A DNA stretch of 3,295 nt, taken from a virus (lineage: Duplodnaviria > Heunggongvirae > Uroviricota > Caudoviricetes). The translations under genes were made by a program, and so were the position numbers. Shown here in pieces: positions 1 through 3,295 of the stretch. Within the stretch, counting starts at the first letter, position 1. Each line of letters starts with the position of its first letter. The notes under the pieces were generated by a model, which ran no database searches, was not told the DNA's origin, and saw nothing but the letters and a program-made list of their open reading frames with translations. Location of the stretch: the IMG/VR virus record IMGVR_UViG_2778261635_000007, positions 1 to 3,295 of that record; one strand, written 5' to 3'.

Positions 1-486
1 GTGGGTGTCGGCATTCCGGCATGTTCCTGTTTAGATGATCCAGGCGCATACAAAGCTGGTTATGCAATCTGCCGTTCTGCAGATTTTAACTCATGGGAAT
101 ATGTGCCAGACCATCGCGGTGAAATCATCTATAGCACCGAAACAGGAGAATCGAAAGAAATCACAGCTCCGGGTGATTACCCTGATAATACAACCACTAT
201 CGCCCCGTTAACGCCATATGATAAATGGGATGGTGAGAAATGGGTGACGGATACTGAGGCACAGCATAGTGCCGCAGTAGACGCGGCAGAAGCAAAGCGC
301 CAGTCACTGATTGATGCAGCAATGGCTTCCATTAGTCTGATTCAGCTGAAATTACAGGCCGGGCGGAAACTGACGCAGGCAGAAACAACCCGGCTTAACG
401 CTGTGCTGGATTACATTGACGCGGTGGCGGCAACAGATACCAGCACCGCGCCGGATGTCATCTGGCCTGAACTGCCGGAGGCGTAG
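1..486 (+). CDS. Phage tail fibre assembly protein (Tfa/U family), 5' end outside the window; copy in the currently expressed orientation
   Basis: Frame 1 is open from the window edge to TAG at 484-486. The translation ends in DTSTAPDVIWPELPEA, the C-terminal motif shared by lambda/e14/Mu-type tail fibre assembly proteins, and contains an SWEYVPDHRGE block resembling the Tfa N-domain. The GTG at position 1 is very unlikely to be the real start; the true start is probably 80-100 nt upstream. Confidence 0.8.
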   Translation: MGVGIPACSCLDDPGAYKAGYAICRSADFNSWEYVPDHRGEIIYSTETGESKEITAPGDYPDNTTTIAPLTPYDKWDGEKWVTDTEAQHSAAVDAAEAKRQSLIDAAMASISLIQLKLQAGRKLTQAETTRLNAVLDYIDAVAATDTSTAPDVIWPELPEA

Positions 487-895
487 GCCATTCAATATCT
501 GGCGCACCGGAAGTATCGACCAGTTCCAGTGCGTCCAGATAATCCAGCCATAAATTATATTGTTCCAGCTCGTCACCTTTCAGACGACCAATAGCAGCTT
601 TGCCGGGCCATTGTTTACTGTTCATGTATTCGTTGGCCTGATTAATTAATAGCTGTCTTTTTGACTCAGAAATTTCAATAAGTTCTTCATGCGTGGGTGA
701 AGGAATATCTGCCCACGCAGGCATTCCGTCTGCACCTGCAATACGTCGCTTACCCTGCGGAGGTGTCGCCATAAACGACTCGGCACGTCGGGTTTCAATA
801 TCTTTTGCATCATCAGGCCATGTGCCGGAATCGCGGTATACGGCCTCATTACCAGCCAGATAAAACGCATTTTTTTTAGCACTGTATTTGTACAT
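458..895 (-). CDS. Phage tail fibre assembly protein, alternative copy (145 aa) in the silent orientation
   Basis: 145-aa ORF ending in VDTSGAPDIEWPTPPAVQAR, the same Tfa C-terminal motif. Its ATG (895-893) lies 1 nt after the TAA (899-897) of the upstream tail-fibre module, suggesting translational coupling. It converges on and overlaps the + strand Tfa gene by 29 nt (458-486). Confidence 0.8.
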   Translation of the reverse strand: MYKYSAKKNAFYLAGNEAVYRDSGTWPDDAKDIETRRAESFMATPPQGKRRIAGADGMPAWADIPSPTHEELIEISESKRQLLINQANEYMNSKQWPGKAAIGRLKGDELEQYNLWLDYLDALELVDTSGAPDIEWPTPPAVQAR

Positions 896-896
896 A

Positions 897-1316
897 TTAT
901 TTCCCTACCGCAATCCAGAAAAATGAACTCATGCTGGCTACTGGTACTCCGCCCGCTGTTGGAATCATCAGATTTCGGACGCCGCATCCTAAATTAGTTA
1001 TCGTTGGCGCTGAAATTACTGGCGACTGAACTACGTTAGGAAGCGATACCTGCTGAGGACCAAATCCCACATACATCGGGTATGCAGAGAACGCGACAGG
1101 AAACGTAATAAAGACCTCTCCAGTTGATGATGGATTGGCTGTCCCCCACTGAATAATCAGACCTGACGGTAATTTTTGCCAGCCAGGGCTGGTCAGGCTG
1201 GATGTGAAGTTATTCATATCCGGTATCTGATTTTTCCCTGTCCCCACATTCCGTTTTGCCGCTTCTCCCAAACCAACGTTTATGAAAATGCAGAGATAAT
1301 GGCTAACTGGCATCAT
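897..1316 (-). CDS. Tail fibre protein C-terminal variable module (promoterless alternative host-specificity segment); the in-window ATG is probably not a real start
   Basis: ORF on the - strand whose frame runs through the crossover site at 1263-1288. The translation is Gly/Pro/Ser/Thr/Val-rich, typical of tail-fibre distal domains, and it is immediately followed by a Tfa gene. The arrangement matches the Sv' U' half of Mu G / P1 C / e14 P invertible segments. The functional protein would only be made after inversion fuses it to the constant 5' part of the fibre gene outside the window. Confidence 0.6.
1263..1288. other. Site-specific DNA inversion crossover site (hix/gix/cix/pix family), invertase-proximal copy
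   Basis: TTCTCCCAAACCAACGTTTATGAAAA is an imperfect 26-bp palindrome. It matches the recalled Salmonella hixL site (TTCTTGAAAACCAAGGTTTTTGATAA) at 20 of 26 positions, including the central AA dinucleotide, and sits 55 bp upstream of pin at the junction with the tail-fibre module. Confidence 0.7.
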
Positions 1317-1343
1317 CCCCGGTTTTTATTCAGGGGATTGATC

Positions 1344-1898
1344 ATGCTTATTGGCTATGTACGCGTGTCAACAAATGACCAGAACACCGATTTGCAACGT
1401 AGTGCGCTGAACTGCGCGGGATGTGAGCGGATTTTTGAGGATAAAATCAGCGGCACTAAGTCCGACAGACCGGGGCTGAAAAAACTGCTCAGGACATTAT
1501 CGGCAGGTGACACTCTGGTTGTCTGGAAGCTGGATCGGCTGGGGCGTAGTATGCGACATCTGGTCATTCTGGTTGAGGAGTTGCGCGAACGAGGCATCAA
1601 CTTTCGTAGTCTGACTGATTCAATTGATACCAGCACACCAATGGGACGCTTTTTTTTCCATGTGATGGGTGCCCTGGCTGAAATGGAACGTGAACTGATT
1701 GTTGAACGAACAAAAGCAGGACTGGAAGCTGCTCGCGCACAGGGACGAATTGGTGGACGACGTCCCAAACTTACACCAGAACAATGGGCACAGGCCGGAC
1801 GACTAATTGCATCAGGAGCTCCTCGCCAGAAGGTGGCGATTATCTATGATGTTGGTGTGTCAACTTTGTATAAGAGGTTTCCGGTCGGAGATAAATGA
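1344..1898 (+). CDS. pin: Serine-recombinase DNA invertase (Pin/Gin/Cin/Hin family), 184 aa
   Basis: ATG at 1344 preceded by AGGGGA (1332-1337) with a 6-nt spacer; TGA at 1896-1898. The N-terminus MLIGYVRVSTNDQ carries the catalytic Ser of small serine recombinases, and a C-terminal helix-turn-helix-like region (GAPRQKVAIIYDVGVSTLYKRF) follows. Near-identical, from memory, to E. coli e14 PinE. The longer ORF from 1176 in the track is an upstream in-frame extension without a ribosome-binding site. Confidence 0.92.
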   Translation: MLIGYVRVSTNDQNTDLQRSALNCAGCERIFEDKISGTKSDRPGLKKLLRTLSAGDTLVVWKLDRLGRSMRHLVILVEELRERGINFRSLTDSIDTSTPMGRFFFHVMGALAEMERELIVERTKAGLEAARAQGRIGGRRPKLTPEQWAQAGRLIASGAPRQKVAIIYDVGVSTLYKRFPVGDK

Positions 1899-2160
1899 AA
1901 CCGTAGCACGTCGTATGCAAGAACGTGCCACGGCTGGCTGATGGACGTTCGATAGCGCGAGTTTGAATGAAAATCAGCCGGAGATGATTTTACATAATTG
2001 CTACGGAATTATTCAATACAGGAATTGCTTGTGTCTGCATGGATTGACCTGAAATAGTCCCGAAAATTTCTCTAAAAAACCCGAAAAAAATGGTAACTAA
2101 TTGAATGTATTAATATGTAATGGTACGTGTTAGGGATTAAAAGATGAGCATGAATTTATT

Positions 2161-2173
2161 TAACGCATTGATT
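2161..2173 (-). promoter_or_regulatory. Candidate IHF binding site in the att arm
   Basis: TAACGCATTGATT matches the reverse complement (YAANNNNTTGATW) of the IHF consensus WATCAANNNNTTR at all defined positions, about 30 bp from the att core. The consensus is degenerate and the region is AT-rich, so a chance match is possible. Confidence 0.25.
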
Positions 2174-2195
2174 CTAAAAAATTTTGTTGCTTGTT

Positions 2196-2228
2196 GACGA
2201 AAACAGGAATCGTGTTCGGTCTCTTTTT
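2196..2228 (+). terminator. Hybrid (partly degenerate) intrinsic terminator derived from the SdsR terminator
   Basis: Left arm GACGAAAAC (2196-2204), 7-nt loop AGGAATC, right arm GTGTTCGGTC (2212-2221), then TCTTTTT (2222-2228). The stem has one bulge and one mismatch, whereas the native SdsR hairpin as I recall it is a perfect 10-bp stem. Confidence 0.45.
2203..2228 (+). ncRNA. sdsR: 3'-terminal fragment of the SdsR (RyeB) sRNA, a partial copy acting as prophage attachment core; the SdsR body is absent
   Basis: ACAGGAATCGTGTTCGGTCTCTTTTT matches the recalled 3' end of E. coli SdsR (ACAGGAATCGTATTCGGTCTCTTTTT) with one mismatch. The about 80 nt upstream is AT-rich and does not resemble the GC-rich SdsR body, so this is a displaced 3' end rather than the intact gene. 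Confidence 0.55.
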
Positions 2229-2362
2229 ATCTGTTAAAAGCCAGAAGCATTTCCTTCGCTGACTTTATAGTCAACCATAACACACACTCTACTGTCTGAG
2301 TCCAGCGTTTTTTAACATTCTTGTTAAGATTATGTGATCTTTAGCGCGGGAGGAAAATATTG

Positions 2363-3019
2363 ATGAAACAGCCTGCGCCCGTTTATCAGAGAATTGCGGG
2401 TCATCAATGGCGACATATCTGGCTTTCTGGCGATATACACGGTTGTCTTGAGCAGTTGCGCCGCAAATTATGGCATTGTCGTTTTGATCCGTGGCGAGAT
2501 TTACTTATCTCAGTGGGAGACGTTATCGATCGTGGGCCGCAAAGTTTACGTTGTCTGCAGTTACTGGAACAACATTGGGTTCGTGCGGTAAGAGGCAATC
2601 ATGAACAGATGGCGATGGATGCGCTGGCATCCCAGCAGATGTCTTTGTGGTTGATGAATGGCGGCGACTGGTTTATTGCGCTGGCAGATAATCAACAGAA
2701 ACAAGCGAAAACGGCGCTGGAAAAATGTCAGCATTTGCCCTTTATTCTTGAAGTACACAGCCGCACCGGCAAACATGTTATTGCTCATGCCGATTATCCA
2801 GATGATGTTTATGAATGGCAAAAGGACGTTGATTTGCATCAGGTCTTGTGGAGCCGCTCACGATTAGGTGAACGCCCAAAAGGGCAGGGAATTACAGGTG
2901 CTGATCATTTCTGGTTTGGTCATACACCGTTGCGACATCGCGTGGATATTGGCAACCTGCATTATATTGATACCGGTGCTGCCTTTGGGGGCGAACTGAC
3001 TCTTGTGCAATTGCAATAA
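2363..3019 (+). CDS. pphA: Serine/threonine protein phosphatase 1 (PPP-family, lambda-phosphatase-like metallophosphoesterase), 218 aa
   Basis: ATG at 2363 with GGGAGG at 2348-2353; TAA at 3017-3019. The metallophosphatase signature is present: GDIHG, GDVIDRG, GNHE. Length and sequence match my recollection of E. coli PphA/PrpA. The TTG at 2360 used by the ORF track is a less likely start. Confidence 0.85.
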   Translation: MKQPAPVYQRIAGHQWRHIWLSGDIHGCLEQLRRKLWHCRFDPWRDLLISVGDVIDRGPQSLRCLQLLEQHWVRAVRGNHEQMAMDALASQQMSLWLMNGGDWFIALADNQQKQAKTALEKCQHLPFILEVHSRTGKHVIAHADYPDDVYEWQKDVDLHQVLWSRSRLGERPKGQGITGADHFWFGHTPLRHRVDIGNLHYIDTGAAFGGELTLVQLQ

Positions 3020-3211
3020 TTAAAAATCACCGTACTCCTGCGCAGGTCGCCAGAAACCATCTATAAAATCCTCAATCGGAAAACAACCGCCCTGGCGGAT
3101 CCGTTGATCGCTCATAGAATGAAGACACTGCTGTTCCGTGTTGTAGACATCCACAACAATATCTTCACAACCGCCATCCAGGTAGCAAACAAAAAGTACC
3201 AGCGCGAACAT
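3020..3211 (-). CDS. yebW: Small conserved protein, probably YebW (63 aa); start uncertain, ORF is open to the window edge
   Basis: Convergent with pphA, with a stop codon abutting the pphA stop. Starting at the internal ATG (3211-3209) gives exactly 63 aa, the length I recall for E. coli YebW, which lies next to pphA. A GGGG motif sits 4-5 nt upstream of that ATG. The identification rests on synteny and length only; I do not recall the YebW sequence. Confidence 0.4.
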   Translation of the reverse strand: MFALVLFVCYLDGGCEDIVVDVYNTEQQCLHSMSDQRIRQGGCFPIEDFIDGFWRPAQEYGDF

Positions 3212-3295
3212 TTCATCCCCGAAGTGTGGTGCCGTACCGTTAAGTTTAGGAGAGATTTTACAACGGGGGAATAACCAGGACAAATAACCCGCCAT

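Follow-up and report, generated by a model that had tools for sequence, protein, structure and literature searches.

Introduction

Positions 2132-2197 of the window, as the whole 3,295-nt stretch of viral DNA that was analysed is called here (positions 1 to 3,295 of IMG/VR record IMGVR_UViG_2778261635_000007), raise the question whether a short open reading frame (ORF), which begins behind a Shine-Dalgarno (SD)-like motif and ends in an inverted repeat, is a small gene, a leader peptide, part of an RNA or merely an accident of the DNA in which it lies. On the plus strand, AGGGA (2132-2136) is followed by the 7-nt spacer TTAAAAG and by an ATG (2144-2146) that opens 17 sense codons, encoding MSMNLFNALILKNFVAC, before the TGA at 2195-2197, and this stop codon extends into the beginning of the inverted repeat GACGAAAAC/GTGTTCGGTC. 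All these letters, as a preliminary description of the DNA had given them, were confirmed in the sequence. The same description had likened the arrangement to a leader peptide or attenuator that ends in a terminator hairpin, had cautioned that such an ORF easily arises by chance in AT-rich DNA, and had guessed that the region is an arm of a phage attachment (att) site, which turned out to be right. Region 2132-2197 is very probably the core-proximal P arm of a lambda-type attachment site, in which the ORF is accidental.

The right junction of a prophage in sdsR

The window contains attR, the right junction of a lambda-type prophage of ~42 kb that is inserted in the 3' end of the chromosomal sRNA gene sdsR (also ryeB), upstream of pphA, and occupies the last ~25 bp of this gene. 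In BLAST comparisons with 5426 complete Escherichia coli genomes, window positions 2198-2362 were matched in every genome and positions 1899-2197 in only 228, many of which are O26/O111; most of the 5426 genomes carry the empty site. In strain K-12, the matching site is located between yebY and pphA and the sequence directly to its left is sdsR, the terminator of which reads GGACCGAATACAGGAATCGTGTTCGGTCTCTTTTT. Strain PEC422 is 100% identical to the window and harbours the complete ~42-kb prophage between yebY and pphA. Since this prophage has int and xis at the yebY end, beside an intact sdsR, and ends with pinE as its last gene at the pphA side, the junction seen in the window is attR.

At attL of PEC422, the whole sdsR is joined to phage DNA via the same core, which there has phage-type bases (GTATTCGGTCTTTTTTT). 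Because attR displays the bacterial-type G2214 and C2223, while attL displays the phage-type A and T at these positions, strand exchange is assigned to ACAGGAATCGT (2203-2213), the corresponding segment of the att core. The core as a whole, ACAGGAATCGT(G/A)TTCGGTCT(C/T)TTTTTA, is shared by attR, attL, attP and the K-12 attB. Its attP form is represented by the free phage vB_Apl-pPE4, in which the same left arm is followed by the core and then by a convergent int gene. The ORF (2144-2197, plus strand) ends a few bases before the exchange region and lies wholly in phage P-arm DNA.

Pfam assigns region 1-1316 to two genes for tail-fibre assembly plus a cassette for a tail-fibre C-terminus and recognizes, among the other flanking genes, one of the DUF1482 family on the minus strand and, at 1344-1898 on the plus strand, pinE, which encodes a Pin-type invertase and is the last prophage gene, in agreement with the PEC422 annotation. 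To the right of the exchange region, the chromosomal spacer between sdsR and pphA (2214-2362, plus strand) is present in all 5426 E. coli genomes and holds the ryeA promoter. It is followed by pphA (2363-3019, plus strand), the chromosomal Ser/Thr phosphatase gene of K-12 and PEC422, the product of which is a metallophosphatase by Pfam.

Several observations on the phage itself may be added. The tail-fibre genes, next to which pinE is found, constitute an invertible module: a tfa gene at 1-486 (plus strand) is opposed by a second one at 458-895 (minus strand), these two ORFs sharing 458-486 at their 3' ends, and 897-1316 on the minus strand codes for an alternative tail-fibre C-terminus. The early region of the PEC422 prophage (L063:8921-14411, L063 being the PEC422 locus) is Rac-like and comprises ralR, recT, recE, kilR and ydaE, with hokD also present, and its combination with a contractile-tail, baseplate-type late region makes the prophage a mosaic. 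The recorded host of vB_Apl-pPE4 (PP818812.1, L004 3001-3454) is Actinobacillus pleuropneumoniae, a label that looks doubtful because this phage has an attP core that corresponds to the 3' end of enterobacterial sdsR and shares 85% identity in its arm with the E. coli prophage. Furthermore, IMG/VR loci L007, L021, L040, L025, L029 and L032 display the same P arm and core next to right flanks that are unlike the pphA side of E. coli (examples are ATCTATAAAGCC, ATTTCGATTATA and ATTAATATTAAA); judging by these flanks, the loci may be attP forms or insertions in other host species.

Anatomy of the attachment site

The attP of phage lambda has the order P1-H1-P2-X1-X2-F-H2-COC'-H'-P'1-P'2-P'3, with two arm sites in P and three in P', and its IHF sites H2 and H' flank the core. 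A similar layout is apparent here. The motif CYCGAAAWW has two matches in the window against 0.2 expected by chance, both equally oriented in the P arm with a spacing of 21 bp, where conservation of the arm is highest: CCCGAAAAT (2059-2067, plus strand) and CCCGAAAAA (2080-2088, plus strand) are putative arm-type Int sites that resemble P1 and P2, respectively. The P' arm of PEC422 contains three tandem copies of the slightly broader motif CYCGAAWWW (L063:7395-7424), and all five copies of the latter, two in P and three in P', have the same orientation and may represent a set of arm-type repeats that, as sequence matches, are distributed as in lambda.

The window matches the IHF consensus WATCAANNNNTTR only once: AATCAATGCGTTA, at 2161-2173 on the minus strand, lies inside the ORF, ~41 bp left of the core centre, and is a candidate counterpart of lambda H2. 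A mirror-image match is located in the P' arm ~39 bp right of the core (L063:7372-7384, plus strand), and the two candidate sites, both perfect matches to the consensus, are in inverted orientation and symmetric about the core at ~40 bp on either side, in positions comparable to those of the lambda IHF sites. Among 34 arms, 8 of the 9 specified positions of the candidate IHF site are invariant, while the variable ones are three N positions, the R position and a C/T toggle; 31 of the 34 arms feature one mismatch to the consensus (T for C, position 4). In addition, the direct repeat ATGTAT/ATGTAA, with its copies 10 bp apart (2105-2120, plus strand), stands in a conserved block where lambda has its Xis sites and is a weak candidate for a Xis site.

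The proteins agree with this picture. The integrase matches PF00589, PF22022 and PF09003, the last being the lambda arm-binding domain (29.7 bits, cutoff 22), while the excisionase that adjoins the site matches PF07825 and is lambda Exc-like. A tyrosine integrase with an arm-binding domain and an excisionase are hence encoded beside the att site, with int and xis next to P' as in lambda. Unlike lambda, however, the core and arm-site sequences are different (CYCGAAWWW here) and the interval between the P-arm repeats yielded no H1-like IHF consensus.

According to this layout, region 2132-2197 would work as DNA. The core-proximal site inside the ORF would serve as the IHF bending site, the putative Xis sites and the two arm-type Int sites would be occupied farther out in the P arm, and the P arm together with its mirror-image P' arm would let the heterobivalent integrase assemble the intasome around the core. 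At attR, recombination has fused the imperfect left half of the sdsR terminator that the phage carries with the genuine right half, and this gives the hairpin in which the ORF ends. An intact terminator is rebuilt at attL for the real sdsR, and the attR copy is left without predicted terminator strength.

Insertion at this position has precedents. Balbontin et al. reportedly described, in 2008, a phage attachment site in the 3' end of ryeB/sdsR that is used by PhiW104 and other elements. Phage PhiW104 of Salmonella attaches within the last 23 bp of ryeB, and the ryeB locus is described as an insertion hot spot (PMC7380047; PMC3333887; PMC3603311). The site of the present prophage, as likened from published descriptions, coincides with that of PhiW104 in its target, namely the last ~23-27 bp of sdsR, which lie within the antisense gene ryeA and comprise the loop, right arm and U-run of the terminator. 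Moreover, the 3' end of the gene is duplicated in the phage in both cases, and sdsR is thus rebuilt at one junction. Unlike PhiW104 of Salmonella, the present prophage resides in E. coli (228 of 5426 complete genomes), and it has a Rac-like early region and a pin-invertible tail fibre. A lambda-type att site in the 3' end of sdsR is a known kind of site at a known hot spot, and its documentation in the sdsR terminator of E. coli is of modest value.

A probably accidental reading frame

In the preliminary description, conservation of the reading frame in homologous att arms had been proposed as a check on the ORF. The arms examined here stem from 43 IMG/VR contigs with arm and core and from E. 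coli lysogens of each identity band, and amount to 45 arms with 34 unique arm sequences and 20 distinct ORF variants. They were collected by an 18-nt pattern that spans the left arm of the hairpin together with the final two bases of the stop codon; because the pattern covers them, the invariance of the stop end and of the left arm in the IMG/VR set is not independent. The E. coli arms collected by BLAST have the same sequence at the stop-codon end and hairpin left arm. A search of 596 Gb of contigs for the junction 18-mer was uninformative, since its 15 matches, in unrelated MAGs, compare with ~17 expected by chance.

From three sequences, it had appeared that the ORF is simply broken in homologues, but this was too hasty. 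In the larger sample, the ATG is conserved in all arms and most lineages keep the 17 codons, as exemplified by the common O26/O111 lineage (MSINLFNTLILKDFVVC) and by another one (MNVNLFNALILKGFIVC), and a formal comparison of synonymous and nonsynonymous changes with control frames was therefore needed. At the same time, an in-frame TAA at codon 11 occurs in 4 ORF variants from 9 of the 45 arms and in E. coli strains M19, E423 and AVS0196, and marks one lineage that includes several E. coli lysogens and the isolated phage pPE4, while a 1-nt deletion breaks the frame in one further arm (L031). Such stops and frameshifts, in arms that are conserved otherwise, are what the preliminary description had named as refuting the ORF.

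Fitch reconstruction on a neighbour-joining tree for region 2144-2197 yielded 41 substitution events in the ORF, of which 13 are synonymous and 28 nonsynonymous. The resulting synonymous fraction of 0.32 compares with a neutral expectation, weighted for transitions and transversions, of 0.31, and the control frames give equal or better ratios of synonymous to nonsynonymous events (13/28 in the +1 frame, 14/27 in the -1 frame). Events are distributed over the three codon positions as 10:13:18 (p = 0.30). Hence, neither a synonymous excess nor a third-position bias indicative of purifying selection on the ORF frame was seen in the 45 arms. Values of omega up to 0.3 are rejected with p = 2e-4 and values up to 0.5 with p = 0.03; a weak constraint, with omega at about 0.7-1, is compatible with the data, about one third of the changes being synonymous. 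Within the arm, variation is highest in the ORF body (2151-2190) and conservation at 2051-2120. The distance from the ATG to the core is 59 nt in nearly all arms, with almost no length variation, and this fixed spacing is explained equally well by phasing constraints on the att arm together with shared descent, although it is also compatible with a dispensable micro-peptide.

Frames of this kind are, furthermore, expected by chance. The intergenic region between pinE and pphA (1899-2362, 464 nt) has a GC content of 37.5% and the arm alone of 30%. Among 2000 dinucleotide-preserving shuffles of 1899-2362, 99% contain at least one ATG-initiated ORF of at least 17 codons (mean 4.0), and in 30% an SD-like 4-mer is found 5-12 nt upstream of such an ORF. 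The SD-like motif in front of the ORF (2132-2136, plus strand) is itself a weak match that is not conserved across the arms, being replaced by AGAGA in the common O26/O111 lineage and by TGGGA elsewhere.

These results weigh against the notion that the ORF encodes a genuinely translated, hydrophobic phage micro-peptide of 17 residues, for instance a small membrane peptide, that is dispensable in some lineages. The ATG kept in all arms, the 17 codons open in most variants, including the O26/O111 lineage, and the weak G-rich SD-like motif 7 nt upstream would suit such a peptide. Its probability is nevertheless very low, because the synonymous fraction equals that of neutral expectation and control frames, omega at or below 0.5 is rejected, the SD-like motif varies, and the lineage with the nonsense codon persists, has diversified and occurs in an isolated, viable phage. 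Moreover, a scan detected no plus-strand promoter-like site for the ORF, no gene is annotated at 2144-2197 in any record examined, and a literature search with three variants of the peptide retrieved no paper containing it.

The 17-codon ORF is very probably an accidental open frame in a 30%-GC att arm, ordinary and of low interest, and has no significance as a gene. The sceptical reading offered at the outset, that of a chance ORF in AT-rich DNA, is borne out by the shuffles, the neutral pattern of substitutions and the broken frames. The locus may instead serve as a cautionary case, given that AT-rich phage att arms readily produce short ORFs with SD-like motifs upstream and that a duplicated gene end at an att junction can mimic a terminator.

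A crippled copy of the sdsR terminator

With CTCTTTTT behind it, the inverted repeat GACGAAAAC...GTGTTCGGTC constitutes a crippled duplicate of the sdsR/ryeB terminator at 2196-2229 on the plus strand, as revealed by alignment to K-12 sdsR and by folding. Its left arm comes from the phage, its loop, right arm and T-run from sdsR. Compared with the real left arm GACCGAATAC, that of the phage lacks one C (a 1-nt deletion) and has one mismatch, A for U. The consequences are evident from predicted stabilities: native-like pairing of the attR copy reaches only -3.5 kcal/mol versus -14.9 kcal/mol for the genuine sdsR terminator, and window positions 2190-2232 fold at -6.6 kcal/mol into a different structure that is no more stable than shuffled sequences (z = -0.16). 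On the contrary, the native sdsR terminator, both in K-12 and at attL, folds at -15.8 kcal/mol (z = -3.8). A terminator scan of 1850-2420 detected no terminator-like site either, and the designation of the inverted repeat as a terminator hairpin in the preliminary description was not confirmed. Recombination at a duplicated gene end left the attR hairpin as a by-product, without predicted terminator strength.

The affinity of this segment to sdsR and its antisense partner is also reflected by a partial match of the minus strand (2232-2129) to the Rfam family SraC_RyeA (RF00101 / CL00105), which scores 29.2 bits against a gathering score of 37; the alignment convinces over no more than the first ~40 positions of the model, where the terminator complement lies. 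A full-length SraC/RyeA-SdsR locus was not found here, the score being below gathering and the sdsR body being replaced by phage DNA.

Probable transcription through the arm

According to Choi et al. (PMC6610125), the sigma-70-dependent start of ryeA lies at sdsR +141. In the window, this start would map to ~2266 on the minus strand and would now point into the phage arm. A -10-like TATGGT with an upstream TG is seen at 2277-2272 on the minus strand in the ryeA promoter. Another minus-strand promoter-like match, at 2200-2171, has hexamers that vary among the arms. In the circular phage, int also reads minus-ward through the arm.

Downstream of pinE, a hairpin at 1900-1932 is strong on the minus strand only, with -21.5 kcal/mol and z = -3.7 versus z = -0.8 on the plus strand, and is followed by UUUCAUUUAU. 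HK97 and pPE4 retain it with paired changes in the stem, and ~95 nt around it (context 1872-1996) are 77-83% identical to HK97, phi80 and many Stx phages. A match of this hairpin to the Rfam family CssrB is below threshold (29.6 versus 76 bits). Its identification with lambda sib/tI was rejected, since the annotated sib retroregulation site of HK97 adjoins the homologous hairpin, which lies just beyond it, and does not overlap it. From its predicted fold and position, the hairpin may be a leftward terminator for int or for transcripts that enter the att site.

With these elements in view, the stretch could be thought to act as RNA, either as a plus-strand phage sRNA with a borrowed sdsR terminator or as the body of a chimeric minus-strand RNA that starts at the ryeA promoter (~2266), or at int in the free phage, and extends antisense through the ORF to the 1932-1900 hairpin. 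This would accord with the ryeA promoter and start that remain at attR and point into the arm (PMC6610125), with the partial SraC_RyeA match, with the strong, conserved minus-strand hairpin and its U-rich tail at 1900-1932, and with altered ryeA/ryeB levels in Salmonella lysogens of PhiW104 (PMC7380047). However, RNAalifold analysis of 26 unique arms (2120-2229), compared with column-shuffled alignments, revealed no conserved RNA structure on either strand, with z = -0.37 for plus and -1.30 for minus and only one pair with a double change; beyond the core, the arm has no recognisable similarity to RyeA or SdsR, and the scan for plus-strand promoters found none that could serve a borrowed-terminator sRNA. 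An RNA function of the stretch is accordingly very improbable. Minus-strand transcription through the ORF region is nevertheless likely; it would probably be a mere consequence of the insertion and would give the ORF no meaning.

The leader-peptide or attenuator layout, in which translation of the ORF into the hairpin would set termination and hence read-through into pphA, is the least probable reading and can practically be discarded: although the stop codon reaches into the left arm of an inverted repeat that precedes a T-run, much as the short ORFs of trpL, hisL and pheL stop at the foot of an inverted repeat with a T-run, and although pphA is expressed by read-through of the sdsR terminator (PMC6610125), the arrangement differs from attenuator leaders in lacking regulatory codon runs, alternative terminator/anti-terminator folds and covariation, in its unstable hairpin (-3.5 kcal/mol for native-like pairing, z = -0.16), in the absence of a downstream operon in the phage and in a frame that bears no coding signature and is not conserved, the ORF of one entire lineage ending at codon 11, ~20 nt short of the hairpin. 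The ORF and hairpin are, moreover, already present in the free phage, in which the next gene is int on the opposite strand and leaves nothing to attenuate, and pphA comes to lie downstream of the ORF only after integration. Region 2132-2197 is better understood as the P arm of the attachment site, and what remains to be considered is the effect of its joining to the host chromosome.

Predicted consequences for the host

In E. coli without the insertion, pphA is expressed mainly from the sdsR promoter via read-through of the sdsR terminator, and transcription of ryeA interferes with sdsR (Choi et al., PMC6610125). The prophage puts ~42 kb between the sdsR promoter and pphA and parts the ryeA promoter from sdsR. 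Because both pphA and the ryeA promoter are thus separated from sdsR, altered expression of SdsR, RyeA and pphA is expected in lysogens, an uncoupling of the sRNA pair and the phosphatase gene that is predicted from the published work on sdsR, ryeA and pphA. A comparable effect of PhiW104 on ryeA/ryeB has already been reported in Salmonella (PMC7380047).

More tentatively, ~4% of E. coli genomes, many O26/O111 EHEC among them, could have a host regulatory module rewired by the junction, in that the antisense and interference control of the SdsR 'toxin' sRNA by RyeA would be lost and a hybrid host-phage RNA would run antisense through the ORF towards pinE. If this suggestion, which we consider possible but somewhat less than probable, were true, lysogeny would raise SdsR, lower pphA and create a new chimeric RNA.

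A minor observation concerns the sdsR copy at attL (L063:7256-7360). Here, the phage-type core turns a U:G pair of the terminator into U:A and the tail CUCUUUUU into UUUUUUU, while the predicted stability is unchanged at -15.8 kcal/mol. Since sdsR is rebuilt at attL with the phage-type core, lysogens would, judging from the attL sequence, express SdsR with a slightly altered terminator.
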